Origin: a virus
Taxonomy: Duplodnaviria > Heunggongvirae > Uroviricota > Caudoviricetes
DNA: 64,000 nt
Strand: one strand, 5' to 3'
IMG/VR virus record: IMGVR_UViG_3300037502_002518
Span: 5,712-69,711 of that record
Shown: one piece after another, positions 10,421 through 55,100 of the stretch
How the letters are laid out: every line of letters starts with the position of its first letter
Position numbering within the stretch: position 1 is the first letter of the stretch
The notes under the pieces: model-generated
What the model was told of the DNA's origin: nothing
The model's input: only the letters and a program-made list of their open reading frames with translations
The model's database searches: none
Position numbers and translations under genes: made by a program

Positions 10421-10738
10421 GAATAACTACGCCCCCTTATGTGGTGACATATAAGATGGACACCTGTAAGAATCGGGAAGGCTAAGTTGTAAGATACAAT
10501 ATGCTAATCCGAGCCGAAGTTACAGAGTAACGTTTGTAACAGGCGCAACGCATAGGAATGAAACTGACACAATATAAAAAAGGGTGTAAAATATGGATGT
10601 CAGAATATAAATTTTCCCACGAGACAGGTGCAACTCTATGAGTTGAAAAGATATGCTGAACTGAGGATGAAAAAACATCCTATAATGCGGTGAAAGCCCC
10701 AGAAGTAGAGGATAAAAAGCCTTTACGATAACATTATG
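10421..10738 (+). mobile_element. putative group I self-splicing intron (318 nt, no ORF)
   Basis: interrupts a conserved P-loop; 5' exon ends in U, element ends in G; candidate P7 pairing AACGCATAGG / CTATAATGCGG. Confidence 0.55.
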
Positions 10739-11737
10739 GTAGGAAAATCTGGAAAGACTACGCTTTTTTATGAATTAGCAAAAACAGATTATGTTGGTGG
10801 GCTAGATAAAGCCCTTTTGGTTGGATTTGAAGACGGATTCAAAGCATTACGTGGCATCAATGCAATTAGTATTAACACTTGGAAGGAATTCACAGAACTT
10901 GTAGATGAGTTATGCACTAACAAAAAAAGCCATACATTTGAGTGGATTGGACTAGACACTCTTGATTACCTTTACGATTATGCTACAGATTTTATCGTTA
11001 GACGTGAGCGTGTTGCACGTAAAGATGCAAAAATTAAACAAATTAGTGACATTCCATGGGGAGCTGGATATAAATTAGTTTCCGATGAAGTAGACTCTCA
11101 AATCAAAAAGCTTCAAGCACATGGCTTTGGCTTGTTCGCAATTACTCACGATAAAGAAAAGAAAATTGAACTTAAGAGTGGAGAGTCTTATGATAAGACT
11201 ACACTAACATTATCAAATCGTGCAAAAGATTTATTTGTCAACATGGCAGATTTTATTACCTATATTTCAATTGAAAAAGAAGTTGATGGAGATAATTCTG
11301 TAAAAGAAAATCGCTGGATTTACTTCCGTTCAGATGGAAATATTGAAGCTGGTTCACGATTCACAAATATTGTTGAGCGTGTACCATATGGGGCGGATAA
11401 CTTCTTGAAAGCTTTTGAAGATGCAGTATTGTCATCTTATGATGGAGATGAAGATGCTAAAGATGAAGCAAAGAAAGAACAAAAAGAAGAGAAGTTAAAA
11501 GAAATTGAAAAGATTGAAGACGAAGCAAAAGAAGAAATTGAAAAAGCAAAAGAAATTGAAGAATCTATGACTGATGCTGACATGATTGAATTAATTGGTA
11601 CTTTAATTAATGATATGGATGACACACAAAAAGATGATTTTAAAGTTAAAATCAAATCAGAGTTTGGTAAAATCAATTACAAAAAATACGACTCTGAACA
11701 GTTAGCACAAGCTTTACAAATTGCAAAAAATATCTAA
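10739..11737 (+). CDS. Sak4/RecA-like recombination ATPase, exon 2 (VGKSGKTTLF...)
   Basis: joined product gives Walker A GVGKSGKT; AAA/RecA-like fold features; acidic coiled C-terminal region. Confidence 0.6.
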   Translation, partial: VGKSGKTTLFYELAKTDYVGGLDKALLVGFEDGFKALRGINAISINTWKEFTELVDELCTNKKSHTFEWIGLDTLDYLYDYATDFIVRRERVARKDAKIKQISDIPWGAGYKLVSDEVDSQIKKLQAHGFGLFAITHDKEKKIELKSGESYDKTTLTLSNRAKDLFVNMADFITYISIEKEVDGDNSVKENRWIYFRSDGNIEAGSRFTNIVERVPYGADNFLKAFEDAVLSSYDGDEDAKDEAKKEQKEEKLKEIEKIEDEAKEEIEKAKEIEESMTDADMIELIGTLINDMDDTQKDDFKVKIKSEFGKINYKKYDSEQLAQALQIAKNI

Positions 11738-11750
11738 AAAAAAAACAAAA

Positions 11751-11781
11751 ATGACCGTAGTTTATCTATGGTCATTTTTTA
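11751..11781 (+). terminator. rho-independent terminator (ATGACCGTAG...CTATGGTCAT plus T6), flanked by A-run (possibly bidirectional)
   Basis: 10-bp stem and T-run seen in sequence. Confidence 0.75.
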
Positions 11782-11787
11782 TCTAGG

Positions 11788-11997
11788 GTGATTAATATGG
11801 AAAATTCTTACTATAATCTGGTAGAGGGCATGAATGGGAAAACAAAAATGTATCACATTGTTGATGACAAAGACAGTGAATATGTTAAAACGGTTGAAGT
11901 CGCAACATTTGAAGATGATATGCATGCAAAGATTATATGCGATTTAATGAATATGTGGAACGATGAAATGTTTCTTAGGGTGAGCAAAGATGATTAA
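11788..11997 (+). CDS. hypothetical small protein (69 aa)
   Basis: RBS AGGGTGATTAAT. Confidence 0.45.
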   Translation: MINMENSYYNLVEGMNGKTKMYHIVDDKDSEYVKTVEVATFEDDMHAKIICDLMNMWNDEMFLRVSKDD

Positions 11998-12538: not shown

Positions 12539-12547
12539 GGTGATTAC

Positions 12548-13168: not shown

Positions 13169-13180
13169 GGGGGAATTTAA

Positions 13181-14776: not shown

Positions 14777-14801
14777 TGCCAAATAAAAAGTTGGTGTAAT
14801 T

Positions 14802-16775: not shown

Positions 16776-16794
16776 AACGAAAGTAGGAGAGAAA

Positions 16795-19426: not shown

Positions 19427-19798
19427 ATGCTTCTTTTATATATGAGTTTGACTGGGAACGTGAGAGAGTTTGTTGAAAAAACAGGCTTGAAAAATAGAGA
19501 GATAGAGCCTACAAATCCATTCTTTGAAGTTAATGAGGACTTTGTAATTGTAGTTCCATCATATGAAGGATATATAAATGAAGAAGTTGAAGACTTTTTA
19601 TCATATAAAGACAATTCAAAGTTTTTGAGAGGTTTTGCATCAAGTGGAAATTTGAATTTTGATGAACTATTTTGTGTGAATGCAAAGCAGTTGTCAAAGA
19701 AGCTCAATAAACCTCTTTTTTTTAAGTTTGAATATAGTGGTACAGACAGAGATGTTAATTTGTTTTTAGAAAGGTTGGGAGAAATTGAAAAAGGTTGA
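19427..19798 (+). CDS. nrdI: NrdI flavodoxin-like protein
   Basis: N-terminal [13 protein letters not shown] (flavin-binding loop), size, position. Confidence 0.75.
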
Positions 19799-20525
19799 GC
19801 TAAAAAAGGGGAAAGAAAGTGAGAATTATTTTCACTTAAATAATTTGTTAAATATTCCAAAAGATGGAAAGATACAACTAAATAAAGACAAAGAGGCTGT
19901 AAAAGAATATTTCCTTGAGTACGTGAATCCAAATACAATGTTCTTTCATTCATTAGAAGAAAAGTTGGGATATTTGATTGAAAATGATTATATCGAAGAA
20001 GATATGATTAACAACTATAGCAAGGAATTCATTAAAGACTTATTTAAAAAGGCATATGACAAGAAGTTTAGGTTTAAAAGTTTTATGGGAGCATATAAGT
20101 TTTATTCCCAATATGCTATGAAGACAAATGATGGAAAGTGGTTCTTAGAACGATATGAAGACCGTGTTGTCTTTAACGCTTTAAAGCTTGCAATGGGAGA
20201 CGAAAGTTTAGCAGATTCGCTGGTTGAAGAAATGATAAACCAACGTTATCAACCTGCAACTCCAACATTTTTAAATGCAGGGAAAAAGAGACGTGGAGAA
20301 TTTATTTCATGTTTCCTGCTTACAATTGATGACTCTATGAATTCAATTGGACGTGCAATTAATTCTGCTTTGCAACTATCGAAGCGAGGTGGAGGGGTAG
20401 GAATCGGATTATCTAACATTCGTGCCAACAATGACCCAATCAAAGGTGTTGAAGGTTTATCGGACGGTGTTGTTCCTGTCATGAAGTTGTTAGAGGATTC
20501 GTTCTCATATGCCAATCAACTGGGT
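19785..20525 (+). CDS. nrdE: class Ib ribonucleotide reductase alpha subunit NrdE, exon 1
   Basis: [24 protein letters not shown] motifs; ends ...SYANQLG. Confidence 0.8.
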
Positions 20526-20848
20526 TGACATACAGGCTCAGTATAAAACGGGTTAACTGCTGGAACTTCTTTAGAGCTTAATGCGCCACAACGCAACTGG
20601 AAACGGTAATCGTAAAGGCTTAAAAAGTATTAAGATTAGAAAATCAGCATCCACTCCTCTAAGTGTTAAAACATAAGAGGAAGGTTCAACGACTAAGTGA
20701 CAGCAAAAGTGATTTTGTTGTCCGAATCCGTTAAATGTTTAATAAATAACACTCTTTATTAAATATGAAATATATAGTCTGTTCTTTAGGGAGACCTAAA
20801 GAGTGTAGCAGAAATGACTGCACCCCACGTTAGTGGAGTAACAAAAAG
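20526..20848 (+). mobile_element. group I intron 1 in nrdE (323 nt, no ORF)
   Basis: R-like AACGACTAAG and S-like ATATAGTCTG P7 elements; 5' exon ends U, intron ends G; splicing restores ANQLG|QRSGSGVTYL. Confidence 0.7.
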
Positions 20849-21265
20849 CAAAGGTCTGGTTCTGGAGTAACGTACTTGAATATCTTCCACCCAGATGTGA
20901 TTGACTTTCTTGCAGTAAGAAAAGAGAATGCAGATGAAAAGGTTAGAATTAAAACTTTATCTCTTGGTTTAGTTGTCCCAGACAAATATTATGAGCTTGT
21001 AAAAAACAATGAGAATATGTATCTTTTCTCTCCTTATGATGTTGAAAAAGAATATGGAAAACCTTTCTCATATATTGATATTACAAAAGAATATGACAAC
21101 ATGGTTAATAATAAAAATATTCGTAAATCTAAGATTAAAGCGAGAGAATTAGAAACTGAAATTAGTAATCTTCAAAATGAAAGTGGTTATCCTTATATTA
21201 TTAATATTGACCATGCAAACAAAGCCAACCCAGTTCATGGAAAAATTATCCAGAGTAACTTGTGT
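20849..21265 (+). CDS. nrdE: NrdE exon 2
   Basis: ...YLNIFHPDVIDFL ... SNLC. Confidence 0.75.
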
Positions 21266-21542
21266 AAACAAATGCACCTTTAAGTAGGAATGCTTATCGA
21301 AAATCCTGTTAAACGGGGAAACCCTCACTTGAGACAATCCCGTGCTAAATTTATTTGATACATTATGTTTTTTTAAATAATAAATGCCGAACGACTATCC
21401 CACTATGGGAGTACACTACAAGCCTTTGGTGGTGGAAAAGCAGGACATCCAGAACGGATGATGATATAGTCTGCTCTATATGGTGACATATAGCTGTGGT
21501 TAGCCCACGCTCTAATTTTAGCGAGATTAGAGGAACAAAAGG
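21266..21542 (+). mobile_element. group I intron 2 in nrdE (277 nt, no ORF)
   Basis: AACGACTATC and ATATAGTCTG elements; junction restores SNLC|VEIFQV... with the expected 23-residue spacing to DISCNLGS. Confidence 0.7.
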
Positions 21543-22571
21543 GTAGAAATTTTTCAAGTGCAAACGGAGTCAAAAATCAATGATGACCAAACTTATGAAG
21601 TTTTAGGTAGTGATATTTCTTGTAACCTTGGGTCAACCAATATCACAAATTTAATGGAGTCACCAAACTTTGGAAAATCAGTAGAGGTTATGACAAGAGC
21701 ATTAACAAATGTATCTGATATGTCAAGCATTGATTCAGTCCCATCAATAAAAAATGGTAATGATAGATACCACTCTATTGGTCTAGGAATGATGAACCTT
21801 GCTGGGTTCTTAGCAAAAAATCAAATTCATTATGGTAGTGATGAATCACTAGAGTTTGTTGACAAATACTCTATGCTTTTAAATTATTGGACTCTTGTTG
21901 CAAGTAATAAGATTGCAATTGAAAGAGATGAGAAGTTCTATGAATTTGACAAATCAAAGTATGCTAGTGGGGAATATTTTGATGAATACTTTAAGATTTT
22001 AGAACTTGATTTTAAACATGACAAGGTTAAAGGTTTGTTTGGAGGTGTCTATATTCCAACAATGAAAGATTGGAACGTGTTAAAGGATGCTGTTATGACT
22101 TATGGCTTATACTCAGCGTTTAGGCTTGCCACACCTCCGACAGGAAGTATCAGCTACATCAATGAAGCTACAGCTTCAATTCATCCAGTCATTTCAAGAA
22201 TTGAAGAAAGAGTTGAAGGTAAACGTGGTAAAGTTTATTATCCTGCTCCTTATCTTTCAGAAGAAACAATTCCATATTACAAGTCAGCATATGATATTGA
22301 CCAAAGAAAAATTATCGATGTGTATGCTACAGCACAAAATCATATTGACCAAGGTTTGAGTATGACATTATATACAAAATCAAATTTTAATGAAGGTCTT
22401 TATGAATGGAAAGTAGGAACAGCTTATCCTACAGAGAAAACGACAAGAGATTTAAACATTTTCAGAAACTACGCTTGGTCTAAAGGGATTAAGTCAATTT
22501 ACTACATTAGAACGTTTACCGAAGATGGCGATACAATTGGTGCAAACGAATGTGAAAGCTGTAGTGTATAA
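21543..22571 (+). CDS. nrdE: NrdE exon 3 (includes C-terminal CESC)
   Basis: DISCNLGS, C-terminal redox cysteines. Confidence 0.75.
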   Translation, partial: VEIFQVQTESKINDDQTYEVLGSDISCNLGSTNITNLMESPNFGKSVEVMTRALTNVSDMSSIDSVPSIKNGNDRYHSIGLGMMNLAGFLAKNQIHYGSDESLEFVDKYSMLLNYWTLVASNKIAIERDEKFYEFDKSKYASGEYFDEYFKILELDFKHDKVKGLFGGVYIPTMKDWNVLKDAVMTYGLYSAFRLATPPTGSISYINEATASIHPVISRIEERVEGKRGKVYYPAPYLSEETIPYYKSAYDIDQRKIIDVYATAQNHIDQGLSMTLYTKSNFNEGLYEWKVGTAYPTEKTTRDLNIFRNYAWSKGIKSIYYIRTFTEDGDTIGANECESCSV

Positions 22572-23577: not shown

Positions 23578-24228
23578 TTGGCATTAGTTATTAAAAAGGA
23601 CGGTTCAACAAATTACTGGGATAGTGAAAAAATTGTAGAAGCAATTATGAAATCAAGTGATAGAGTAAGCAAGAAAAAGCAACTGACAAAAGAGCAGATA
23701 AAATCCATTGTTGATGGAGTTGAAAAAAATGTATCATCATTTGATACGATTTATACATCAGATATTCACGACATGGTACTGTCTCAATTGCAAATTTTTA
23801 ACAAAAGTGTTTATAGAGAATATAAGATTTATCGTGACTATAAGAAAAAATTTAGCGATTCTTTTATAAATGTCACAGAGTATTCAAACAAGATTGTGTA
23901 CAGTGGGGACAAAGAGAATGCAAACAAAGATTCTACTTTAAATTCAACAAAACAAGCGTTAATTTCAGAGGGCATTATGCGTGAATTCATGAGAAACTTT
24001 GAGCTTAGAAAAGAGTGGGTAAAAGCTCATGATGATGGGTGGATTCACATTCATGATATGGCAAACAGATACCTTGGAGGTATTAATTGTTGCATTTTTG
24101 ATATGGACAATCTACTAAAAGATGGTTTTGAGATGAATGGTTCAAAATACTTTGAACCAAAATCAGCACAAACCGCTTGGGCTGTGATTGGAGATGTGAC
24201 ATTAAGTGCATCTGCGCAACAGTACGGT
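23578..24228 (+). CDS. nrdD: anaerobic (class III) ribonucleotide reductase NrdD, exon 1 (ATP-cone)
   Basis: N-terminal ATP-cone-like sequence; TTG start after RBS AAGGAGAG. Confidence 0.7.
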
Positions 24229-25095
24229 AAATAATTGCCGTAATAAAACCTGCTAACCAGCAAATGCTGGGTGTCTATTAAAAATAGGCTAACGGTGAAA
24301 CCTTAACAGATAATGCTGATGGCAATACCGTGCTTGACTCCATAAATAAATGAAAAGGGGGTGAAAATATGGAAGAAGTTTGGAAGAGTATAGACGATTT
24401 TGAAAATTATATGGTGAGTAACTATGGTAGAGTAAAATCCATCGATAGAATTATAAAAGAAAATGGTAAAAAAGGTTATTTTAAAAAAGGTGTTGTTTTA
24501 AAGGGTCAACCAAATAAAAACAATGGAAGAATATATGTTAACCTATACAACACTAGGGAAAAGAAAATTAAAAATGCGATTGTTGCCAGACTAGTTGCGA
24601 AAGCTTTTATAGACAATCCTAAAAATCTCAGAGAAGTTAATCATATAGATAGAGATGTAACAAATAACCATGTAGACAATTTAGAATGGGTAAGCCCTAA
24701 AGAAAACATGAAACACCTTGAAAATAAATATGGTTTTGATTTTGGCAGAATACCTGTTATTGGAAAACATAAAGAGACTGGGGAAGAAGTTTATTTTTCT
24801 TCAATAAAAAATGCCACTGATTGGCTTAGTGAAAAACAGGGAAAAATTGCTTATGCATCTGGAATAAGCAACTGTTGTAAAAGCACAAGAAAATCTTATA
24901 GAGGATATAAGTGGGAGTCAAGTTTAGAGACTATCGAAAGCATAGATTGACAACAAAAAGCTAGTTGACAATTGAAGAAGCGAGTAGAGTAGGATATGTG
25001 GTGAAATTCCCAATCCGAAACGGCAGGCAACGACTAGCAATCGTTGAAGATATAGTGCAAATAAGTAACCAGTAGGGAAACCTACATCTTATTTG
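24229..25095 (+). mobile_element. group I intron 1 in nrdD (867 nt) carrying an HNH homing endonuclease ORF
   Basis: AACGACTAGC element, structured flanks, internal HNH ORF. Confidence 0.7.
24369..24950 (+). CDS. intron-encoded HNH homing endonuclease (NUMOD4-like N-terminus YMVSNYGRVKS; HNH core EVNHIDRDVTNNHVDNLEWVSPKEN)
   Basis: HNH motif read directly from the sequence; RBS AAAGGGGGTG. Confidence 0.85.
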   Translation: MEEVWKSIDDFENYMVSNYGRVKSIDRIIKENGKKGYFKKGVVLKGQPNKNNGRIYVNLYNTREKKIKNAIVARLVAKAFIDNPKNLREVNHIDRDVTNNHVDNLEWVSPKENMKHLENKYGFDFGRIPVIGKHKETGEEVYFSSIKNATDWLSEKQGKIAYASGISNCCKSTRKSYRGYKWESSLETIESID

Positions 25096-25296
25096 GGTTT
25101 CAGTATTCCAAACATTGAATCAATCGTAGCTCGATATGCCGAAAAATCATATACAACACACTATGAATACTTTATTGACAAAGGTATTGATGATAACAAA
25201 GCTCAAGAGCTTGCTGAAGAAATGACTATTAGAGAGATTGAACAAGGGTATCAAGGGTTTGAAACCAAGTTGAACACTGTCTCAAATTCGCTGGGT
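25096..25296 (+). CDS. nrdD: NrdD exon 2
   Basis: in-frame segment between two introns. Confidence 0.6.
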
Positions 25297-25597
25297 TAGT
25301 TATATGGCTCACCTTACTGTAAACGGTAAGGATAATAGGTGGTGAACCTGCAAAAGCAGGGTGTGTATTAAATTAATATGCTAACGGTAGAACCTAAATC
25401 TTTTGACAAGGCAATACCGTGCCAAGTTTAAAGAGAAATCTTTTTAAAGGTGTAACGACTAAGATGTACGTCCTAAGTGTATACACATATGGATATGAAA
25501 TCTGTACAGACAGAGTGAAATTCTTTGTTTGGAAGCGCCACCCACCTAAAGCTTAAAGCTATGGTGAAGATATAGTCTACACTTATAGAAATATAAG
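25297..25597 (+). mobile_element. group I intron 2 in nrdD (301 nt, no ORF); 5' part closely resembles intron 1
   Basis: AACGACTAAG and GAAGATATAGTCTAC elements; shares AACCTGC-AAAGCAG...CTAACGGT...GGCAATACCGTGC block with intron 1. Confidence 0.7.
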
Positions 25598-26863
25598 GTT
25601 ATTGTGCAAATCCCTTTCGTCTCCATTTCATTTGGTTTAGACACGTCAAAATGGGGCAGAATCATTTCTAAGAAAATGTTGGAAATACGTGAACGTGGTA
25701 TAGGAAGAGACAGGATTTCAGCGGTGTTCCCGAAGCAAATTATGTTTATTCGTAGTGAAATCAACAAAAATGAAGACAGTCCAAATCATGACATTTATTT
25801 AAAAGCAATTGAATGTAGCAGAAAACGTTTGTATCCAGATTATTTAAGCTTAGACTCACCAGAGACGAATAATCTTGCAGAGATTTATGAACGCTCTGGA
25901 CAGGCAGTGATAGCAATGGGATGTAGAGCGTATTTAAGCCCTTATGAATATGAGGGTAAAGAGATTTACAACGGTCGTTTTAACATTGGAGCAGTCAGTT
26001 TAAACTTACCTAAAATGGCAATTGAAGCGAATGGCAACAAAAGTAAGTTTTTAAAATTGATTGATAAATATTCTGAAATGGTTTTTGAAATTCATGAAGA
26101 TTATTACCAAAGACTTTCACAGGTAAAGGCTTCAAGTAACCCACTTCTATTTATGGAAGGTGGCTCATTTAAAAAGCTAAAGGCAGATGAAACAATTGAA
26201 GAGTTACTAAAAGGAGCAACAGCATCATTAGGATACGTTGGTGTTGAAGAAGCAATGGTTGCATTAACTGGGGAAGGAATTACAAAGAATAAAGATTTCT
26301 CCATTGAGACAGTGCAAAGGCTAAAAGATAATGTCAATAAAGCATCAAACAAATACAATAGACTTGGGGCTTTGTACAGTACCCCCGCAGAAAATATTAT
26401 CTACCGTTTTAATAATATTAATCGTGAACAATATGGAGAAATTGACGGTGTAACAACGAGAGAATACATGACAAATTCTTTTCATGTCCCTGTTTTTGAA
26501 GATGTTTCAGTATTAGAGAAGATTGATTTTGAGTCGAACTTTCACTCTATCGCAACAGGTGGAAGAATTTCATATTGTGAGTTCCCTTACAATGTAGATT
26601 CAAAGATTTTAAAACAAGCCATTGATTTTGCAATGGAAAAAGGTTTATACTATGGTGTCAATGTTATTTCAGCAACATGTAATGATTGTTCTCACTCTGG
26701 TGATTTTGAGGATTGCCCAGAATGTGGTTCAGACAATGTGACATCAGTTTCTCGTGTATGTGGATATTTAAGTTTTGGAAAAATTAAAGGGGATTCACGA
26801 TATAACCTTGGTAAGCAAGCAGAGGTAAGAGAAAGAGTAAAACACACATTTGGAGGTTGCTAA
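25598..26863 (+). CDS. nrdD: NrdD exon 3 (glycyl-radical domain, RVCGYL motif, C-terminal Zn site CNDCSHSG...CPECG)
   Basis: glycyl radical motif SRVCGYLS. Confidence 0.75.
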   Translation, partial: VIVQIPFVSISFGLDTSKWGRIISKKMLEIRERGIGRDRISAVFPKQIMFIRSEINKNEDSPNHDIYLKAIECSRKRLYPDYLSLDSPETNNLAEIYERSGQAVIAMGCRAYLSPYEYEGKEIYNGRFNIGAVSLNLPKMAIEANGNKSKFLKLIDKYSEMVFEIHEDYYQRLSQVKASSNPLLFMEGGSFKKLKADETIEELLKGATASLGYVGVEEAMVALTGEGITKNKDFSIETVQRLKDNVNKASNKYNRLGALYSTPAENIIYRFNNINREQYGEIDGVTTREYMTNSFHVPVFEDVSVLEKIDFESNFHSIATGGRISYCEFPYNVDSKILKQAIDFAMEKGLYYGVNVISATCNDCSHSGDFEDCPECGSDNVTSVSRVCGYLSFGKIKGDSRYNLGKQAEVRERVKHTFGGC

Positions 26864-37346: not shown

Positions 37347-37730
37347 ATGACAAAAGAAAAAGTGAGAGTACTAAGAATTCTTGAGTATGTTGGAGATAGA
37401 GAATGGGTAGAAAAAACTTTAAAATCAAGCAGTGTGCCAATGAATGGCGATTCATCTATAAACACAGGCAGAGAAAATATTATCAAATCAGCTATTATTG
37501 ATAGTTTCCCAGAAATTTTGAACAATGTTGACAATGATATTGATTCAGACTTAATTGAAGTACACGATAGAGTTGCAATTTACAACAATCAAAAACGAGC
37601 AACACATTTAGGGACAGTTGTTAGTGTTAATGATTTTCGTCCACCAGAACAAAAATATGCTGTTGATGTAGATGGATATGATGATGATGTTTTATTTTTT
37701 GGTGAAGATGATTTGAAAGTTATTAAGTAG
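37347..37730 (+). CDS. hypothetical protein (127 aa)
   Basis: RBS AAAGGAGACAATTAATTATG. Confidence 0.45.
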   Translation: MTKEKVRVLRILEYVGDREWVEKTLKSSSVPMNGDSSINTGRENIIKSAIIDSFPEILNNVDNDIDSDLIEVHDRVAIYNNQKRATHLGTVVSVNDFRPPEQKYAVDVDGYDDDVLFFGEDDLKVIK

Positions 37731-37763
37731 GTGGAAAGTTTCATTAAGAGTAGGTGAAGAGAG

Positions 37764-37940
37764 ATGAGAGAAAAAGTTCTGTTTGATGAAGACCAGAAAA
37801 AGATTAATGGTTCAGTTGAGAATCATGCTATCGGCAGTTATCAAATTGGAGAAATTTCTAAATTAAGTGCAACTTTGTACGATAGTGGTGTAGATGTTGT
37901 TAAGGAATTACAGCGTTTAAAACGTTTTTATCAAGCATAA
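37764..37940 (+). CDS. hypothetical small protein (58 aa)
   Basis: RBS GTAGGTGAAGAGAGATG; not in track. Confidence 0.35.
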   Translation: MREKVLFDEDQKKINGSVENHAIGSYQIGEISKLSATLYDSGVDVVKELQRLKRFYQA

Positions 37941-38066
37941 GATTTCAAATAAAATACAAGTTTTATTGTTGATGATGAGACAACGACCGATGATGTCGAT
38001 AAATTAATTTCGTTTGTAACCAATTTCTTTGACCGAGTATCTGATTACTAGAAAAGGAGAGAAACA

Positions 38067-38453
38067 ATGATACAACCTTATGTTAGTCTACTTGCACAAC
38101 ACAAAAAGGGGAATATGCCCATTTACCGTGAGTTGTTAAAAGAAACGTTTGGGAAAGAATTGACATGGAAAGAGGTGCAAGCACTTGATGAAAGTGTTCA
38201 ACGAACTCTATGTTATGACCTAGAAGAACGAATAACCATTCATGAATCGCCTTATGATATCAAAAAACTAGCTCATGCTATTCAACATTCGAGAAGCGGG
38301 GTTGGCGGAAGTTCTATAACGGCTTTCACTTGTGCCTTTTGTGAGAAAGAAGAATGGTGGGAGAATACAGCCGTACCTAATATCTGTCAGGGTTGTGCAG
38401 AAAAGATGGCGAAAAAAATTGTCGTTAATAATATGACAATCACAAAGGTGTAG
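38067..38453 (+). CDS. hypothetical protein with C-terminal zinc ribbon (CAFC...CQGC)
   Basis: RBS AAAGGAGAG. Confidence 0.45.
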   Translation: MIQPYVSLLAQHKKGNMPIYRELLKETFGKELTWKEVQALDESVQRTLCYDLEERITIHESPYDIKKLAHAIQHSRSGVGGSSITAFTCAFCEKEEWWENTAVPNICQGCAEKMAKKIVVNNMTITKV

Positions 38454-44306: not shown

Positions 44307-45002
44307 ATGAAAAAACAATATTTTAAAAAAGGTGAAAAAGTTTGGGTAAAGAGCGAAAAGAAAGCAGGAATTGTAAAAGAACTTATTATCAACCCAAATA
44401 AAAAAGAGTTTAAGGCTGAAGTTGAAATCAAAGTTGATGAGAACACAAAGCTTAACAAAAAGGTTGAGTTGAAAGACTTAGAAAAAACATTTGGTAGTAA
44501 AAATCACACTCCTCGACCAACAATTTTAATTGCAAAGACAAGATATGATGCTGTCATTCCAAGTAAAGAGAATGAAGATGCAGGCTATGATGTTTATGCT
44601 TGTTTTGAGGAAGATGAGGTTGTGATTATGCCAAATGAAGTTGCCATGATTGGCACTGGGATTGCAACTTCAATTACAGATGACTGGGTTCTTGTAGTTA
44701 AAGAGCGTGGCTCAACAGGGACTAAAGCAATGTCTGTCCGAGCAGGAATTATCGACTCATCATTCCGAGGTGAGATTTTTGTTCCTATCAATAACACATC
44801 AGACAAGCGTATTGTGATTACAAAATCTGTAGACCAAGTAGAAAAGCATGAGGACAGAATCTTATATCCTTACTCTAAAGCTATTGCACAAATGCTACTA
44901 CTACCTGTTCCAAAGACGAATATTAAAGAGATTTCTTACGAAGATTTACAAAAGATTCCATCTAAACGTGGAACTGGTGCATTAGGAAGCTCAAACAAAT
45001 AA
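44307..45002 (+). CDS. dut: dUTP diphosphatase (long form with N-terminal extension)
   Basis: dUTPase motifs AGYDV, VVKERGSTG, RAGIIDSSFRGEI. Confidence 0.75.
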   Translation: MKKQYFKKGEKVWVKSEKKAGIVKELIINPNKKEFKAEVEIKVDENTKLNKKVELKDLEKTFGSKNHTPRPTILIAKTRYDAVIPSKENEDAGYDVYACFEEDEVVIMPNEVAMIGTGIATSITDDWVLVVKERGSTGTKAMSVRAGIIDSSFRGEIFVPINNTSDKRIVITKSVDQVEKHEDRILYPYSKAIAQMLLLPVPKTNIKEISYEDLQKIPSKRGTGALGSSNK

Positions 45003-48742: not shown

Positions 48743-48757
48743 AACTCCCCAGAAAGG

Positions 48758-49324: not shown

Positions 49325-49943
49325 AGAGATTGAGATGGAGTTTTTAAAGAAATTAAACAAAATTAGAGGCACAATGTCTGATAGTGACCTCTTGAATAAC
49401 TTGAGTGCTATTCAAGAAATGAATTGGGACAGTGACTACTCTATCTTGAATAACATCTCTCATTCACGACTAGAAAAAATCCTCAATGGTGAGTATGAGA
49501 TTGCAGGGTCAAAATTTAAACGAGATGACTGGGTTACAGTTGAATGGTCTGATTTTGAACACACTACACACAAAGTAAATTCTTGTGTGAATGAACTTGT
49601 TTCAATCAATTTAGCTTACCATTCTGGTGTGTCTAACCATTTACCCCCTGCAGATATTGTAAGATATGCAACAAGTGAAGAAATTAAACAAGAGAAATCT
49701 AGAGCTTTTTGGTATCAGATTGGAAGAAAACCATATGAATATAAAGTCGGTGATATTGTTAAATATAAAGGGTATATTCGTATAGTTAAAGAAGTGAAAA
49801 CGGGTGGTCATGGGAATACAGACCTCATTTTGTCTGAGAGTAATGAAAAACACAATTTTTCATATCACATTGAGAATGTATACTCTGATGATTTAAAGAT
49901 TGTTTCTACAGCAGAAAGACGTTTGGATTGGGAGGAGAAATAA
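49311..49943 (+). CDS. hypothetical protein (210 aa)
   Basis: ORF. Confidence 0.45.
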   Translation: MKKNEEIEMEFLKKLNKIRGTMSDSDLLNNLSAIQEMNWDSDYSILNNISHSRLEKILNGEYEIAGSKFKRDDWVTVEWSDFEHTTHKVNSCVNELVSINLAYHSGVSNHLPPADIVRYATSEEIKQEKSRAFWYQIGRKPYEYKVGDIVKYKGYIRIVKEVKTGGHGNTDLILSESNEKHNFSYHIENVYSDDLKIVSTAERRLDWEEK

Positions 49944-50002
49944 TGGCTAAATTAATATTTAGATATGGAAGTATGAATTCTGCAAAGTCAGCAAATTTAA
50001 TT
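49943..50002 (+). CDS. tdk: thymidine kinase, 5' fragment/exon (MAKLIFRYGSMNSAKSANLI; P-loop), boundary approximate
   Basis: TK N-terminal P-loop read directly; ATG overlaps upstream stop (TAATG); frame terminates 12 codons later. Confidence 0.6.
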
Positions 50003-51517
50003 ATCTCCCGAAAGAAGTCGCCCTCTTCAAGCGTGTAAAAGGCGCATTCAGACGGTAAGGGGGGAGATGAATTTAGGTCAAGCGGTAGATTAAAACTATC
50101 TTTCAATACTTTTTGTGTCAGTTCATAAATTGTACCAGAAAAGCTATTGATATAATTTTTTATTTGACACTTATCAATCACTTCTACTAAGATATTTGGG
50201 AATTCGATTAACTTGGGAACTATTTCCACTGATGTTCTCATCTAATTAGTATATACTAAGAATATGACAAAGGAGGTGACATATAAAATGTTAAAAGCCT
50301 ACAAATATCGACTATATCCAACCGAAAGTCAGAAAGAGTATTTTTCCAATTGTTTTGGTTGCGCTCGATTCATTTACAACAAAATGCTCAGCGACAAAAT
50401 CGACCACTATAAAGAAAACAAGAAAATGCTTTATACCACGCCTGCTAAGTACAAGAAAGAGTTCCCGTTTTTGAAAGAGGTGGACAGTCTAGCATTGGCA
50501 AATGCTAGACAAAATCTGGAAAGAGCTTATAAAAACTTTTTCCGAGACACGTCCGTCGGTTTTCCAAAGTTCAAATCCAAGCACAAGTCGAAATCGAGCT
50601 ACACCACTAACAATCAAGGTGGAAACATTCGTATAGAATACGGAAAAATCAAACTTCCGAAAATCGGATTCGTAAAACTGAAGCAACATAGAATGTTTGA
50701 TGGGGTTATCAAATCTTGTACGATTTCTATGAATAAGTCAGAAAAGTATTTCATTTCTATTCTAGTAAAATCAGAAGAGAAAGAAATGGAAATCACCGAA
50801 AGAAAAATTGGGATTGATTTAGGTATTTCTGATTTTGCGATTACCACGAACGATTTAGGAGAATCCGTTAAATATGATAACCCAAAGTATTTATATAAAT
50901 CAGAAAAGAAACTAAAAAAATACCAACGTTCTTTGTCTCGCAAACAAAAAGGCGGAAAAAACCGCAATAAAGCTCGTATTTAAGTCGCCAAAAAACACGA
51001 AAAGATTGCCAATCAAAGGAAGGACTTCTTGCACAAACTAACTAAACAGATTACGGACGAAAACCAAGTCATCGTAATCGAAACGCTGTCCAGTAAGAAC
51101 CTGATGAAGAACCACAAACTGGCAAAAAGCATTGGTGATGTCAGTTGGTTTGAATTCGTCCGTCAACTTGAATATAAAGCGGAACAAAAAGGTCGTACAA
51201 TTATCAAAGCGGACAGATTCTATCCATCCAGTCAGATTTGTTCCGCCTGTGGACATCGAGATGGAAAAAAAGGCATTGCATATACGAGAATGGGATTGTC
51301 CTAGTTGTGGTGAACACCTTGACCGAGACATCAATGCCAGTAAGAACCTCTTGGCATTAGCCAAGTAAAAGAAAACATATGAGGCAGGGACTGCCTTTTG
51401 AGCCTACCCCATATCCGATTCCTCTGTCTACATGACATTCGTGCAGACAAGAATGGAGTTAGTAGGAAGCCCCACTTTAAAATTTTAAGAATTTAAGTAG
51501 TGGGCAGTTCACTCATG
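50003..51517 (+). mobile_element. IS200/IS605-family (IS1341-like, tnpB-only) element or IStron-like intron inserted in tdk (boundaries approximate)
   Basis: 1.5-kb insert between tdk halves: 260-nt 5' non-coding, TnpB ORF, 150-nt 3' hairpin-rich non-coding; no TnpA. Confidence 0.6.
50264..51368 (+). pseudogene. tnpB: tnpB (OrfB, RuvC-like RNA-guided nuclease family) disrupted by an in-frame TAA (50981-50983) and a frameshift at an A7 run (51265-51271)
   Basis: N-terminal YKYRLYPT; RuvC-I GIDLGI, RuvC-II VIVIETL, zinc finger CSACGH...CPSCG, Ruv[13 protein letters not shown]. Confidence 0.75.
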
Positions 51518-52027
51518 CAACATTACAACTATGAAAGCGGTGGAAAAAACACATTAGTTTTCAAACCATCTGTTGATACAAGAAGTGACAAAGTAACATC
51601 TCGTGCTTTATATACCGAGATAGAAACAGATTATATTGTTGGACAGAAGGAATATAACTCAATGTTGCCTATTGTCTTACATCATATGCCTAGAGTTGTA
51701 TTTGTTGATGAATCCCACTTCTTAGACAAGCAACAGATTGAAGAATTAGCTATCATAGTTGACAAAATTGGTGTAACCGTCCAAGCTTTTGGTCTTATGA
51801 CAAACTTTAAAGGAGAACTCTTTGAAGGAAGTAAAAGACTTGTTGAATTATCAGATGTTGTAGAAAGGGTTCGTTCTGAGTGTACAGAGTGTTCTAATGA
51901 GGGAATTATGAATGCAAGATATATTGGTGGCAAACTACAGACAGATGGAGATACAGTTATGATTGGTGCTGAAGAAAAGTACAAAGTCTTATGTAGACGT
52001 TGCTACATGAAAGCTATGCAAGAATAA
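51518..52027 (+). CDS. tdk: thymidine kinase, 3' fragment/exon (...YNYESGGKNTLVFKP ... C-terminal zinc ribbon CTECS...CRRC), boundary approximate
   Basis: TK core and C-terminal Zn ribbon. Confidence 0.6.
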   Translation, partial: QHYNYESGGKNTLVFKPSVDTRSDKVTSRALYTEIETDYIVGQKEYNSMLPIVLHHMPRVVFVDESHFLDKQQIEELAIIVDKIGVTVQAFGLMTNFKGELFEGSKRLVELSDVVERVRSECTECSNEGIMNARYIGGKLQTDGDTVMIGAEEKYKVLCRRCYMKAMQE

Positions 52028-52031
52028 ATTA

Positions 52032-52075
52032 AAAGGTAAAGTTTGTGAGATAATCATAGACTTTACCTTTTTGTT
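52032..52075 (+). terminator. terminator hairpin AAAGGTAAAG...CTTTACCTTT (19-nt loop) plus TTTTTGTT
   Basis: seen in sequence after tdk. Confidence 0.55.
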
Positions 52076-52076
52076 A

Positions 52077-52085
52077 TGGTATAAT
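52077..52085 (+). promoter_or_regulatory. extended -10 promoter TGgTATAAT followed by TGCCAAATAAAA (52093-52104)
   Basis: seen in sequence upstream of polymerase. Confidence 0.45.
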
Positions 52086-52123
52086 GTAATTGTGCCAAAT
52101 AAAATACTAAGGAGGAATTATTA

Positions 52124-55100
52124 TTGTTAGATTCAAGTAATTTTGCAAGCCTGCATTGCCACTCGCATTTTTCGCTTCTCGACTCAATCATGAGTCCAGA
52201 AGACATTGTAAAACAAGCAAAAGAATTGGGCTATAAGGCTGTGGCTGTAACGGAACACGGAAATATGCATTCATTTATTGATGGATACAAAGAAGCTAAA
52301 AAGCAGGGGATTAAGTATATCTTTGGGTCTGAAGTTTATGAGACAGACGACATGGATTATAAAGAGTCAGATGCAAGTCGATACCACTTGCTTTTGTTAG
52401 CTAAAAATGAGACAGGATTAAAAAACTTATTCAAAGTTGTGTCTGAGGGTTCGACAAGAGGTTTCTATGGTAAGCCTCGTATTGATAGAGAACTACTATC
52501 GGAACACTCAGAAGGTCTTATTGCAACAAGCGCTTGCCTTGCGAGTAGATTGATGAGGTTGCTTCAACAGGGCTATTGTCCATGTTGCAAACAAAGCAAT
52601 GGTGAACATAAAGAGTCGTGCGACAACGATGAAGTGTTTGAACCAAAGTGGGAAGAAGCCAAAGAAGAATTACAAAAATATAAAGACATTTTTGGTGACG
52701 ATTTCTACATTGAAATTCAATCACATGATACTCACGACCAAAAGATTGGGAATCAGCGTATTCTTCAATTGGCAAAAGAAACGGATACAAAATTTATTTT
52801 GACATTTGATGCTCACATGCCAGATGGCAGTGAAAAAACGCTTGATATTCATAGACGTTTTATTGAAGTTAGTCAAAAAGGTCGTGAAGTTGGAGAGACT
52901 TATATTGGTTGCTACCAACAAGATATGGAAACGGTTTATGATACCTTAGTCCCTCAAATTGGACAAGAAGATTTAGAGCAAGCTATTTTAAATACTGGAG
53001 CTTTAGCAGATTCATGTGAAGACATTGAATTGGACTTAAACAGACCACCAATTATGCCTCATATTGAATTCCCAAAAGAGTATAAGTCAGATGTTGACTA
53101 CTTAAAAAAGCTTGTCAATGATGGGTGGAAAGAAAGGGAAATCCACAAAAAAACAAAAGAAGAACAAAAGGTTTATAAAGAACGTGTTCTTCATGAGATG
53201 GACATTTTAGAAAAGCTTGATTATGCAGGTTATTTCCTTATCATTCACAAATTTATGAATGAATTTAGAAAGCAAGGTATTCCATTAGGCTGGGGACGTG
53301 GGAGTGCGGCTGGGTCTTTAGTCCTGTATTTAATTGGTGTAACCAATGTAGATAGTGTTTATTGGGATTTAGATTTCTCTAGGTTTGCCAACTTAGGAAG
53401 GCGACAAATGGCTGATGTTGATATTGATATTTCAAAAGCCAAACGTGGAGAAGCCTTAAAAATAACAGATGATTTATTTGGAAATAAAAAAGTTGCACAC
53501 TTGTGTACATTTAATTCTTTCTCACCAAAAGTAGCAATTAAAGACTTGGGGAAAGTATTTGACCAAAGCGAAGATAGTCCATATTTTGGAAAGATTCCAT
53601 ATTCAATGAGGGAACGTGCATCTGGACTAATCACTGATGGTTCTAACATTGAAGACGTTTTAGAAGCATCTGGTGAGCTTAGAAGAATCAAGGAAAAGTT
53701 TCCACTGTGGATTGAATATGCACAAGAACTTCAAAACTTACCTAAATCTGTAGGTTCTCATGCTTCTGCAATCATCATTGCCAACGAAGACATTGTAAAT
53801 TATGCACCTGTTATGTATAACAAAGATGGTCGTGTAATGATGCAAGTTGAAATGGGGAATGCAGAAAAAGACTTGGGACTGGTGAAGTTTGATTATCTTG
53901 GACTTGAGAGTTTAGACGTGGTAAATGAGACTTTATCTCTTTTAGGAAAAGGGTGGGAAGATTTATTTGACATTCCATTTGACGATATAAGTACATTAAA
54001 AAACATTTATGCGAAAGGTAACACACTAGGAGTTTTTCAAATGGAATCACAAACCCCAAGAAAAATATTTGAAGACATGTATGAGGGGATTCCAGAAGAT
54101 AAATTTTCTATCAATGATGTTGTTGCTGTAAATGCTTTAAACAGACCTGCTGTATTGAGTCTTGGAATGCACAACAACTACATCAAAGGGAAAAGAGACG
54201 AATCAGAAGTGTCATACATTCACGAAGACCTTAGACCTATCTTAAATGAGACATATGGTGTTCTCTTATATCAAGAAGAAGCTTTGAATGTTTTTAGACT
54301 TGCAGGATTCCCAGAAGAAGAGGTAGACGTTGCCAGAAGGTGTCTGCGTGAGGACACAATGGTACACATGTCTGACGGAACACAGAAAAAGATAAAAGAT
54401 ATTAAAGTTGGAGATTATGTGTTGAGTTACAATGAGCGTGGAGTATCTGAACCAAAAAGAGTTAACAAAGTTTTTTTCAATGGGAAAAAGTATGTAAACA
54501 GATATTTGACAGAAGAAGGACATGAGATATTTTCAACAAAAGACCATCACGTTTTAGGTCTTAATGGATTCGACAGGATTGAAAATTTTAAAGTTGGTGA
54601 CTGTTTAATGACACCAAAAGAAAGTGTTCTCCCCCAATATGTTCCAACAATAATAAAAAATATCGAAAACAGCATTGAATTTTGTGATGTATATGACATT
54701 GAAGTTGAAGATAACCACAATTATATTGCGAATGATATAATTGTTCACAACTCAATTGGTAAGAAGATTCCAGAAGAGATGGACAAACTATACGACAAAT
54801 TTTCTAGTGGTCTTAAAAAAATAGGATGGAATAAGTTGCAAATAAAGGAAACTTGGGAATTGATTGCTTCACAAGCGACTTACAGCTTTAATAAATCACA
54901 TTCCGCCAGCTATGCAATTCTGTCCTTTGTTATGGCTTATCTAAAAAACCACCATCCAAAAGAGTTTATAACCGCCTTATTGACAGATAAAAGGGGAAAC
55001 TTTGAAGATACATCTCTGTATATTGATGAGGCAAACAGAATGGGGATAAAGGTTTTAGAACCAAATATAAACACATCCAATTTGGCATACACTATATCTG

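Follow-up and report, generated by a model that had tools for sequence, protein, structure and literature searches.

Mobile elements occupy seven sites in five genes (sak4, nrdE, nrdD, tdk and dnaE) of the 64,000-nt window, that is, the whole stretch of DNA analyzed here. We read the window as the replication and nucleotide-metabolism module of an AT-rich, previously unsequenced phage of a Gram-positive host, which took up five group I introns, one mini-intein and one insertion sequence (IS). The probability of this explanation as a whole is put at about 0.85.

Inventory of insertions

The insertions lie in a 44.3-kb span (10421-54751) that opens with the sak4 intron and closes with the DnaE intein. 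Together they amount to 4018 nt, or ~9% of its length (Table 1). All eight elements proposed in the sequence-only reading (five introns, an HNH gene, a mini-intein and a TnpB element) are present, at coordinates that were exact or a few bases off. For the elements inside the span we established directly the identities, boundaries, restored frames, conserved core structures and common insertion sites. The hosts are DNA-replication or nucleotide genes, as had been proposed, and Pfam searches of the spliced products confirmed their identities. The neighboring ligase, thyA, dut and a 531-aa helicase ORF, described before as uninterrupted, are each continuous, and so are DHFR, RNase H, primase and a RecJ-like gene. 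Three inserts in the ribonucleotide reductase (RNR) genes matched the Rfam group I model RF00028, and an Rfam scan of the whole window detected no further intron at E<=1. Extra introns were not found in the window by a custom model of the sak4-type family run with filters off, nor were any seen on inspection of its larger intergenic gaps.

Table 1. Interrupted genes and inserted elements, in window coordinates
Feature	Position	Strand	Remarks
sak4 (AAA_24) exon 1	10334..10420	+	ends ...VLVYG; from ORF and frame
sak4 group I intron	10421..10738	+	318 nt, no ORF
sak4 exon 2	10739..11737	+	Walker A onward
nrdE exon 1	19785..20525	+	aa 1-247, ends ...SFSYANQLG
nrdE intron 1 (group I)	20526..20848	+	323 nt, no ORF; RF00028 52.5 bits
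nrdE exon 2	20849..21265	+	aa 248-386, ends ...SNLC
nrdE intron 2 (group I)	21266..21542	+	277 nt, no ORF; RF00028 84 bits
nrdE exon 3	21543..22571	+	reading frame restored
nrdD exon 1	23578..24228	+	aa 1-217, ends ...SAQQYG
nrdD intron 1 (group I)	24229..25095	+	867 nt, carries homing-endonuclease gene
NUMOD4 + HNH_3 endonuclease gene	24369..24950	+	193 aa; Pfam
nrdD exon 2	25096..25296	+	aa 218-284
nrdD intron 2 (group I)	25297..25606	+	310 nt, no ORF
nrdD exon 3	25607..26863	+	reading frame restored
tdk 5' fragment	49943..50000	+	MAKLIFRYGSMNSAKSANL + first base of Ile codon
IS200/IS605 TnpB-only element	50001..51512	+	1512 bp; ends set against copies L010-L012
tnpB pseudogene	50289..51368	+	in-frame TAA 50981-50983; 1-nt insertion ~51265
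tdk 3' fragment	51513..52027	+	alone matches Pfam TK positions 19-176/176
dnaE	52124..55939	+	DNA polymerase III alpha, PHP to HhH domains, intein in frame; Pfam
mini-intein	54341..54751	+	137 aa, aa 740-876 of DnaE

The phage backbone combines a DnaE-type polymerase with Sak4. No nucleotide-level relative of this backbone was found in the phage collection. The relatives of the IS suggest that the host group is Carnobacteriaceae/Alkalibacterium.

Group I introns in sak4, nrdE and nrdD

Once the five intron intervals in Table 1 are removed, Sak4, NrdE and NrdD are full-length and collinear with uninterrupted homologs. The spliced products cover AAA_24/Sak4 (3-195 of 195), the NrdE barrel (2-523 of 523) and NRDD (1-562 of 562) in Pfam. 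The 5' exon ends in U (T in DNA) and the insert in G in all five cases, and the P1 pairings with their U.G pair can be read directly in the sequence. Insertion is always between codons at a critical motif: Walker A in sak4, ANQLG↓QR and the active-site motif SNLC↓xE in nrdE, and QQYG↓GF and SLG↓QIPF in nrdD (the arrow indicates the insertion point). A stop codon occurs no more than six codons past each 5' splice site. After transcription the five introns would fold as P1-P9 ribozymes and self-excise by two guanosine-initiated transesterifications, which would restore the intact reading frames.

The four RNR introns had been assigned to one family by a shared core. The motif AACGACTA is indeed present in all four RNR inserts, with just two further occurrences across the window, and the S element (GATATAGT) is common to all four. 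The one-family assignment is nevertheless only partly right: in nrdD intron 1 (nrdD-I1), AACGACTA forms the 5' strand of P8, not P7, and the true R element is degenerate. Phages of Lactococcus, Staphylococcus and Clostridium, together with an IMG/VR contig, carry homologous introns at the same four RNR sites. Several independent invasions, as suggested earlier, are supported because the nearest relatives of the four RNR introns, each at the matching site, come from different phage groups, and because the sak4 intron comes from another family.

Spliced NrdE (728 aa) is collinear over residues 1-728 with the uninterrupted NrdE of Bacillus phages pW2, Sophrita and PJN02. The first nrdE intron (nrdE-I1; MFE z-score -6.4) has a clear homolog at the identical site, ANQLG↓QR, in Lactococcus phage AM9. 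The second (nrdE-I2) shares 84-90% identity over ~70 nt of core with Staphylococcus phage nrdE introns, and its site is common to Staphylococcus phage S2G3 and Lactococcus phages P1048 and AM5. The introns of the Lactococcus 949-group carry ORFs (HNH in P1048, GIY-YIG in AM5, an unannotated one in AM9), whereas the nrdE introns here have none. In Staphylococcus phage Twort, nrdE contains two group I introns, and an HNH gene lies in one of them; in Brochothrix phage A9, nrdE is interrupted by three introns and an intein, and nrdF by a single intron (PMC3653736). The present phage resembles Twort and A9 in having multiple group I introns at conserved catalytic motifs of the class Ib RNR large-subunit gene and in mixing ORF-less with HNH-carrying introns among its split RNR genes. 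It differs from both in its DnaE/Sak4 backbone and in that the class III gene nrdD is also interrupted twice.

The sak4 junction, YG↓VGKSGKTT, agrees with uninterrupted homologs (...YGVGKAGKTT). Against Rfam the intron gives only a 15-bit local match, to P4-P5. Covariation, notably in P7, supports its placement in a widespread phage group I family that Rfam misses; homologs split genes in 47 phage records. The intron contains P7 (GCAUA/UAUGC), P3 (CACCUGU/ACAGGUG), P8 (CAACUC/GAGUUG) and a 3' tail hairpin (GUAGAGG/CCUUUAC); P1 is 4 bp only and the MFE z-score is -4.3. Core topology was confirmed in seven of nine family members, the script check completed for these seven not extending to CB452P1 and PT1-1. 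In the seven, J8/7 is 6 nt, and the 3' strand of P3 adjoins P8 in six, the exception being vB-SscS-F1 with a gap of 2 nt. All nine members have a fully complementary P3 of 5-7 bp, each with a different sequence, and P7 co-varies (GCAUA/UAUGC vs GCGUA/UACGC). In an alignment of eight members (RNAalifold and pair counts), 96.5% of cells are paired as compared with 30-44% when partners are slid. Compensatory double changes are found in 19 of 29 pairs, and none of 500 shuffles came out as high.

Phages and prophages of the Bacillus cereus group and of staphylococci are known to have group I introns in tape-measure, terminase and tail genes (PMC2504315). The sak4 intron shares its core and 3' tail with introns that split tape-measure, terminase, polymerase and major-tail genes (loci L001-L009), a likeness that does not imply equivalence of these loci with the TMP-IVS elements of that study. 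It differs from the tape-measure, terminase and tail introns in host gene and site. An intron at the Walker A codon was not seen in the best 40 Sak4 homologs of the phage collection.

Spliced NrdD is collinear over residues 1-699 with uninterrupted NrdD of Enterococcus phages. The second nrdD intron (nrdD-I2; MFE z-score -5.1) scores 48 bits against RF00028 (E 9e-11 in a 1.45-kb search), 2 bits under the gathering score of 50. A homolog with a GIY-YIG ORF occupies the identical site in IMG/VR contig IMGVR_UViG_2832702071_000001, and the P3-position helix shows a compensatory change. nrdD-I1 shares its site and 5' end with the nrdD HNH intron of Clostridium phage CS07. The CS07-group and IMG/VR introns share with ours identical sites (QQ[YF]G↓GF and SNSLG↓QIPF), homologous 5' ends and overall layout. 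In contrast to those genomes, one nrdD here has both sites filled; nrdD-I2 has lost its ORF, and in nrdD-I1 the R element is degenerate and P8 very short.

The HNH protein encoded in nrdD-I1 (NUMOD4, E 2.8e-13; HNH_3, E 1.5e-5; Pfam) shares 33% identity with its counterpart in the CS07 intron and has homologs in 2005 phage records. The putative homing endonuclease would cut intron-less alleles of co-infecting phages, and repair would copy the intron in.

The nrdD-I1 core is atypical. Its 5' half resembles nrdD-I2 and is ~75% identical to Bacillus phage DNA polymerase introns (phiAGATE, Grass and others). For the 3' half, a blastn homolog was not found and RF00028 gave no match even at E<=10; its layout was derived by comparison with nrdD-I2, the CS07 intron and an Enterococcus phage EF1 intron. 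MFE z-scores of the two halves are -1.7 and -2.9. Some inserts, especially this ribozyme, might accordingly be dead relics, the host gene being truly split or a pseudogene. This is unlikely, even though the nrdD-I1 R element is one base below canonical length, P7 is weak and degenerate (~4 bp including a G.U pair), and RNAfold favors pairing 24960-67 with 25027-37 instead. An endonuclease gene is now missing from four of the five introns, only nrdD-I1 keeping one, which also fits a late stage of an invasion-and-decay cycle. Against decay, nrdD-I1 retains P1 (UACGGU/GCCGUA), P8 (CAACGA/UCGUUG), the S element AAGAUAUAGUG, P9 (GUAGG/CCUAC) and, at the P3 position, a helix that covaries, and its HNH ORF is intact with a strong ribosome-binding site just upstream (AAAGGGGGTG). 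All exon frames are intact, with zero stops or frameshifts and 54-72% identity to functional-looking homologs, and nrdG and nrdF are intact too. We therefore favor five genuine introns, while nrdD-I1, given its unrecognized 3' half and reduced P7, may splice poorly or not at all.

A TnpB-only insertion sequence in tdk

The insert in tdk is a DNA transposon without a ribozyme. Its ends coincide with those of Alkalibacterium/Carnobacteriaceae copies L010-L012. The last five bases of the tdk 5' fragment, TTTAA, are the transposon target/TAM; the same target lies beside L011 and L012, and target duplication is absent. From left to right the element has a left end with a UCUCCC/GGGAGA stem, a small antisense ORF, the tnpB pseudogene and a right end/guide-RNA scaffold (MFE z-score -3.5). 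After repair, TnpB scores 461.6 bits on NF038281 IS200_TnpB (cut-off 425) and matches OrfB_IS605, TNB and HTH domains in Pfam. TnpB genes occur in 429 phage records. The frameshift is a 1-nt insertion within a run of seven A's, and the tnpB defects could be partly sequencing errors; the TAA is not explicable in this way.

Like IS200/IS605 TnpB elements of the ISDra2 type, the tdk element has HTH, OrfB_IS605 and zinc-ribbon domains, sits 3' of a pentanucleotide without target duplication, and has a structured right end and a scarless excision joint. It differs from its IS200/IS605 relatives and from IStrons in that TnpA and a group I ribozyme are absent and tnpB is inactivated. The IS would have inserted directly 3' of TTTAA by the single-strand 'peel and paste' route, and tnpB would have gained its stop codon and frameshift afterwards.

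When the IS is removed exactly, a 190-aa Tdk results (...KSANLIMQHYNYE...), and its residues 1-189 align with the thymidine kinase models of NCBIfam (1-192/194, E 3e-45). Such restoration would also be expected of an IStron, in which TnpB is combined with a group IA2 intron that is spliced at the transposon ends (10.1101/2023.11.20.567912); tdk would then be spliced at the mRNA level and functional. The sense orientation within the gene and the richness of the genome in group I introns agree with that architecture. We consider it highly improbable. No RF00028 signal was detected throughout 49900-51560 at E<=10, and without a group I ribozyme the insert is not an IStron. Only ~290 nt separate the left end from tnpB, room taken by one terminal stem and the antisense ORF, and the closest relatives (Alkalibacterium) have an equally short left end. 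The boundary bases are A and C, as against U and G in the five introns. Since the transposon interrupts tdk at the DNA level, the gene is probably inactive in this genome.

A mini-intein in DnaE

DnaE has relatives in Alicyclobacillus, Brevibacillus and Clostridium phages. Its mini-intein has Cys1, a TKDH block B, a C-terminal HN and Ser+1; the endonuclease domain is absent. It matches Pfam Intein_splicing, with TIGR01445 and TIGR01443 above their cut-offs, and among solved structures it comes closest to the Ssp DnaB mini-intein (1mi8) and gp41-1. It agrees with these Class 1 mini-inteins in size, Cys1, the TxxH block B, HN followed by Ser+1 and lack of an endonuclease domain, and differs in its host protein, a phage DnaE, and its site (...VARR↓SIGKK). 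Alicyclobacillus phage KKP_3916, in which dnaE is present as four pieces, is uninterrupted across this site (IARRAVGKK). The cyanobacterial split DnaE intein is located farther downstream, beside an FNKSH motif. The mini-intein is predicted to be removed post-translationally by protein splicing.

Although one of the two tnpB defects is in a homopolymer, assembly or sequencing artefacts such as a chimeric contig or mis-joins are a negligible explanation for seven independent inserts with exact and biologically meaningful boundaries, identical sites occupied by homologs in unrelated public genomes, and conserved RNA structures and intein blocks.

Density of elements in comparison with related phages

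The elements had been described as self-splicing and selfish and their density as exceptional. The first description suits the five introns and the intein; the tdk insert is a selfish DNA transposon and not self-splicing. The elements are dense, but 'exceptional' is an overstatement, as the RNR genes of Brochothrix phage A9 are at least as densely interrupted, Twort has its two nrdE introns, and dnaE of KKP_3916 is in four pieces. Comparable packing is thus already on record for related phages. The elements add new members to known kinds, and the sole new site found is the Walker A codon of sak4.

Insertions in the replication module

The sequence-only reading had singled out 10421–54751 as exceptionally dense in self-splicing and selfish elements. 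That observation is confirmed, and its interpretation is essentially right with three corrections. Seven insertions (4018 nt) account for ~9% of the 44.3-kb span (see table). The window has a G+C content of 33% and no tRNA genes. The phage is new at the nucleotide level, since a megablast search of the window against 50,697 phage records returned short intron-core matches only. By protein comparison, NrdE is nearest to the large Bacillus siphoviruses pW2, Sophrita and PJN02 (~72%), NrdD to Enterococcus phages (54%), and Sak4 and DnaE to Brevibacillus phage Sundance and Alicyclobacillus phage KKP_3916.

The replication and nucleotide-metabolism module occupies the + strand from ~7.6 to 56.6 kb. 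It encodes, in order, an MrpR-like recombinase, an SSB-like protein, Sak4, guanylate kinase, a 531-aa putative helicase, primase, a RecJ-like gene product, NrdH/I/E/F, NrdD/G, a kinase-phosphatase-RNA ligase fusion, ligase, dUTPase, ThyA, DHFR, RNase H, deoxyribosyltransferase, Tdk, DnaE and RusA. Lysis and tail-fibre-like genes follow downstream on the - strand. Other features of the region are included in the table. The strong sigma-70-like promoter (TTGACA ... TATGATATGATATAGT) overlaps a perfect 13-bp palindrome (CCTAAGCTTATGA/TCATAAGCTTAGG), a probable operator in front of a small early gene.

Coordinates of the predicted insertions and other features of the window (P1 helices read from the sequence)
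Feature	Position	Length	P1 helix	Remark
Sigma-70-like promoter with palindrome	3470–3530
MrpR-like tyrosine recombinase	7609–8568			heads the replication module; both Pfam MrpR domains matched
sak4 intron	10421–10738	318 nt	GGUG/CGCC
Start of sak4-type tail	10706–10720			TAGAGGATAAAAAGCC
nrdE-I1	20526–20848	323 nt	CUGGGU/GCUCAG
nrdE-I2	21266–21542	277 nt	GUGU/GCAC
nrdE-I2 3' end	21528–21542			TAGAGGAACAAAAGG
nrdD-I1	24229–25095	867 nt	UACGGU/GCCGUA, 6 bp
NUMOD4/HNH_3 ORF	24369–24950			wholly within nrdD-I1; strong ribosome-binding site
nrdD-I2	25297–25606	310 nt	UGGGU/GCUCA
P-loop kinase + metallophosphatase + T4-type RNA ligase fusion	28521–30764	747 aa		Pnkp/Rnl-like RNA repair enzyme
PTH2 peptidyl-tRNA hydrolase	36420–36770
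dUTPase	44307–45002			~80-aa N-terminal extension; insertion ahead of the C-terminal motif, so that profile positions 5–92 of 129 alone align
IS200/IS605 element	50001–51512			bounds set by comparison with Alkalibacterium copies
Antisense ORF	50090–50241 (- strand)			between IS left end and tnpB; also in bacterial copies
Remaining tdk ORF	51500–52027	175 aa		Pfam TK from position 19 onward, so without the P-loop
DnaE intein	54341–54751	137 aa		DnaE aa 740–876

Five inserts with group I splice-site features

The boundaries of the sak4, nrdE and nrdD inserts were derived from protein continuity. All five lie between codons, are preceded by T (5' exon U, P1 U.G) and end in G, and removal restores the reading frame in every case. 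A stop codon occurs at most 1–6 codons past each 5' junction, and PMC2504315 reports this feature in introns of the Bacillus cereus group. Each Pfam model is covered over its full length by the spliced product. The 728-aa NrdE obtained by splicing aligns in one piece (1–728) to uninterrupted phage NrdE sequences of identical length, spliced NrdD aligns in the same way over 1–699 to uninterrupted homologs, and the Sak4 junction becomes YG↑VGKSGKTT (arrow, junction) as compared with YGVGKAGKTT in four uninterrupted homologs. The intron segments are more stable than their dinucleotide shuffles (folding z-scores -1.7 to -6.4; six exon/ORF control segments, +0.9 to -2.5). The count of five group I introns was thus borne out, with boundaries, restored frames and splice-site bases agreeing in 5/5, and guanosine-dependent self-splicing is predicted for them, less securely for nrdD-I1; this assignment is considered essentially right. 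An initial MAFFT alignment of all introns was uninformative.

Further candidates in the window were rejected. GATATAGTC at 3502, considered as a sixth intron core, belongs to the promoter with its palindromic operator. ACGACTA/ATATAGT at 62456/62483 lies on the non-coding strand of an uninterrupted gene, and the 337-nt gap at 37730–38067 contains a small ORF. Pfam detected no free-standing homing endonuclease gene among 40 other window ORFs scanned.

Introns in the ribonucleotide reductase genes

Rfam alignments place a conserved group I core in nrdE-I1, nrdE-I2 and nrdD-I2. nrdE-I2 (84 bits) and nrdE-I1 (52.5 bits) exceed the RF00028 gathering score of 50 bits, and nrdD-I2 falls slightly under it (48 bits, E 9e-11, local search). 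For each of the three, a homolog occupies the identical site in another phage. In Lactococcus phage AM9, an ORF-bearing homolog of nrdE-I1 follows SFSYANQLG, and P3 is compensatory between the two (ACGGG/UCCGU in nrdE-I1, ACCGAG/CUUCGGU in AM9). The nrdE-I2 site SNLC↑xE is also occupied in Staphylococcus phage S2G3 and Lactococcus phages P1048 and AM5, and the nrdE-I2 core is 84–90% identical to staphylococcal nrdE introns. A GIY-YIG-bearing homolog of nrdD-I2 is found at SNSLG↑QIPF in L099 (IMG/VR contig IMGVR_UViG_2832702071_000001), where the nrdD-I1 site is intron-free. The nrdE-I2 3' end resembles the start of the sak4-type tail (table), which hints at a 3'-terminal module common to intron families.

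The fifth insert, nrdD-I1, has a 5' half similar to nrdD-I2 and to DNA polymerase introns of Bacillus phages such as phiAGATE and Grass. At the same QQ[YF]G↑GF site, Clostridium phage CS07 carries an HNH intron whose 5' end is homologous. An intron-less nrdD target would read ...CAGTACGGT up to the junction and GGTTTCAGT... after it. The ORF inside nrdD-I1 matches Pfam NUMOD4 (50.3 bits, cut-off 23.4) and HNH_3 (25.0 bits, cut-off 24.8) and shares 33% identity with the CS07 intron protein. These matches bear out the claim of one intron-borne HNH endonuclease: the product is a predicted HNH homing endonuclease that would cleave DNA.

The 3' half of nrdD-I1 gave neither an RF00028 match nor a blastn homolog, and its layout was read by comparison with nrdD-I2 and the introns of CS07 and Enterococcus phage EF1. 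It contains, in order, AGUAGAGUA, a stem GGAU...AUCC, GAAAC, the P3 3' strand GCAGG, P8 (CAACGA/UCGUUG), AAGAUA, the P7 3' strand UAGUG and P9 (GUAGG/CCUAC). P8, the S element, P9 and a covarying helix in the P3 position are present in this layout. The R element AAAAGCUAG is one base under canonical length, so P7 is just ~4 bp, and the intron may no longer splice. AACGACTA had been taken as part of a core shared by the four RNR introns; the comparison with nrdD-I2, CS07 and EF1 identifies it as the 5' strand of P8 and not the R element. The 3' strand of the covarying helix adjoins P8 in nrdD-I1 (CCUGC/GCAGG), nrdD-I2 (GGUGGUG/CGCCACC), CS07 (CCACG/CGUGG) and L099 (GAUGGUG/CGCCGUC). As a side observation, its 5' strand in nrdD-type introns (24229–24368, 25297–25420, the comparison locus L091, and L099) lies upstream of two hairpins and not directly before J3/4-P4, and the canonical P3 5' position has no partner.

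The sak4 intron and its family

The sak4 intron gave a 15-bit local RF00028 match to P4-P5, below the gathering score. Given this low score, it was classed through its homologs and by covariation. Its last 35–160 nt recur in 47 phage records by blastn, often at 90–100% identity, with hosts including Staphylococcus, Clostridium, Bacillus, Alicyclobacillus and Arcanobacterium. Nine records were examined (OP172752, KX190832, JF767208, MW589261, PV686781, PQ358086, KX156762, PP212900 and AP008983), in which genes annotated as fragments flank the introns. The match lies directly upstream of the 3' part of the split gene, which is a tape measure, terminase, DNA polymerase, major tail protein or YomI-like gene, and an endonuclease ORF often separates the fragments. 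Clostridium phage phiCP13O has a sak4-type tail following a canonical group I core that scores 40 bits in Rfam.

P3 is fully complementary over 5–7 bp in 9/9 members, with a different sequence in each. P7 is GCAUA/UAUGC, or GCGUA/UACGC in two of the nine, as against GACUA/UAGUC in canonical introns. The order P3-P4-P6-P7-P3'-P8-P7'-P9 was confirmed by script in seven of the nine; among these, J8/7 is always 6 nt and P3' adjoins P8 in six, with a 2-nt gap in vB-SscS-F1. P3 and P8 are fully compensatory in the family and P7 co-varies. Unguided RNAalifold on an 8-member alignment of the 3' domain returned P7, a P7.1-like helix, P8, P9 and a tail hairpin. On this structure 96.5% of cells are paired versus 30–44% with the partners slid, 19 of the 29 pairs contain double changes, and none of 500 shuffles reached the observed values. 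RF00028 fails on the family because the changed P7 bases are conserved single-stranded sequence in that model. Family comparison also reassigned two candidate elements of the sak4 intron: GGAUG/CAUCC, tried as P8, and UAUAAUGC, tried as the S element, are P9 and P9.1, and the S element is GAUAUGCUGAAC.

A covariance model (R1) built from the 8-member alignment found no second sak4-type intron in the window; its next-best match (40490, 18 bits) has broken pairs. None of the 40 best Sak4 homologs in the phage collection is interrupted; the Walker-A site of sak4 therefore seems to be a host site new to the family. It is unlikely that the sak4-type family, with its co-varied P7, conserved terminal hairpin and GAUAAC tail, or the nrdD-type introns amount to a group I structural variant that Rfam systematically misses. 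In that case sak4 would count as a newly invaded host gene, and introns would interrupt many phage genes that are annotated as fragments (tape measure, terminase, polymerase, tail).

A putative mini-intein in DnaE

The DnaE insert begins with C740, contains a block B TKDH and ends with HN876, followed by S877. It matches the NCBIfam models of the N- and C-terminal splicing regions, TIGR01445 (34.1, cut-off 24.5) and TIGR01443 (38.7, cut-off 15.6), and Pfam Intein_splicing (43.4, cut-off 35.8). Among solved structures, those of the Ssp DnaB mini-intein and gp41-1 are nearest to it. With 137 aa, the insert is too short to hold an endonuclease domain. The intein is absent from related DnaE genes, and KKP_3916 DnaE is continuous across this site (IARRAVGKK versus VARR-intein-SIGKK in the window). 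The splicing models and the KKP_3916 protein, uninterrupted at this site, uphold the mini-intein that had been proposed in the polymerase. The insert is assigned as a class 1 mini-intein, and protein splicing is predicted.

A decayed IS200/IS605 element in tdk

The tdk gene starts at 49943 (MAKLIFRYGSMNSAKSANL...), and tnpB lies between two tdk fragments. Compared with intact relatives, tnpB carries an in-frame TAA (50981) and an extra A in an A-run (~51265, +1 frameshift); the repaired protein scores 461.6 bits on NF038281 IS200_TnpB (cut-off 425). The nearest relatives of the IS are copies in Alkalibacterium spp. and Carnobacteriaceae bacterium 52-44 (L010–L014 and L016; 83–87% TnpB amino-acid and ~80% nucleotide identity), a hint that the phage host group may be Alkalibacterium/Carnobacteriaceae. 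All copies end on the right in ...GTTCAC. On the left, the window copy, L011 and L012 are each preceded by TTTAA, and the target is not duplicated. When the element is removed exactly, the joint reads ...KSANLIMQHYNYE... and the resulting 190-aa Tdk is collinear with thymidine kinase models over 1–192/194. No TnpA (Y1 HUH) transposase ORF was found in 50001–51512, so the window copy is non-autonomous. The L010 copy has an additional coding sequence upstream of tnpB, and the L012 tnpB likewise has an internal stop codon. The antisense ORF encodes a 45-aa protein in Alkalibacterium copies that looks ribbon-helix-helix-like by sequence alone (MSDKERVEIRMPKVILEKVDAYQKENGLPTRTAAILELIRKGLEK); the window ORF has lost its stop codon and continues into tdk.

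IStrons contain a group IA2 ribozyme, located in a long left end, and they splice at the ends of the transposon (10.1101/2023.11.20.567912). The tdk insert, in contrast, has a short left end without a ribozyme: ~290 nt with one terminal stem and the antisense ORF, no R or S elements, no RF00028 match at E<=10, and boundary bases A↑ and C↑. The IStron hypothesis was rejected on these grounds. Of the TnpB element that had been proposed in tdk, the TnpB identification held on the NF038281 score; the correction is that the element is a transposon and not a splicing element. Less likely still than the structural-variant reading of the introns is a present or recent role of the element in RNA-guided homing against tdk alleles of co-infecting phages that lack the IS. 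An IMG/VR search found no tdk relatives. TnpB genes occur in 429 phage records, so TnpB in a phage is not unusual. It was concluded that the insert is an ordinary, decayed, non-autonomous IS200/IS605 element and that tdk is most likely inactive.

Precedent and significance

The density of insertions is high, as had been noted; "exceptional" is too strong, since Twort and Brochothrix phage A9 give precedent. Twort nrdE has two introns; in A9, nrdE contains three introns together with an intein, and nrdF contains one intron (PMC3653736). Four intron sites of differing structural subclasses are known in B. cereus-group nrdE (PMC2504315). Phage introns are known to prefer polymerase, RNR and terminase genes, since it is conserved sequence that homing endonucleases target (PMC3984707). 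The KKP_3916 dnaE (OQ846916, 57654–64733) is in four pieces, with breaks after window-DnaE aa ~437, ~593 and ~928; the gaps contain ORFs and every piece is annotated as a hypothetical protein. The BMBtp13 tape-measure gene contains at least two introns.

The elements are of known kinds and reveal no new mechanism; what is new is minor, namely the site of insertion in sak4 and the escape of a widespread phage intron family from the standard Rfam model. For annotation, sak4, nrdE, nrdD and dnaE need joining or splicing before they can be read correctly, and tdk calls for a label as a disrupted gene. The sak4 intron exposed a phage group I family left unscored by the standard Rfam model, whose host genes sit as separate fragments in several public phage genomes. 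With five introns of at least four lineages, an intein and a TnpB transposon, the window offers a compact natural set for homing-site sharing across distant phage groups.
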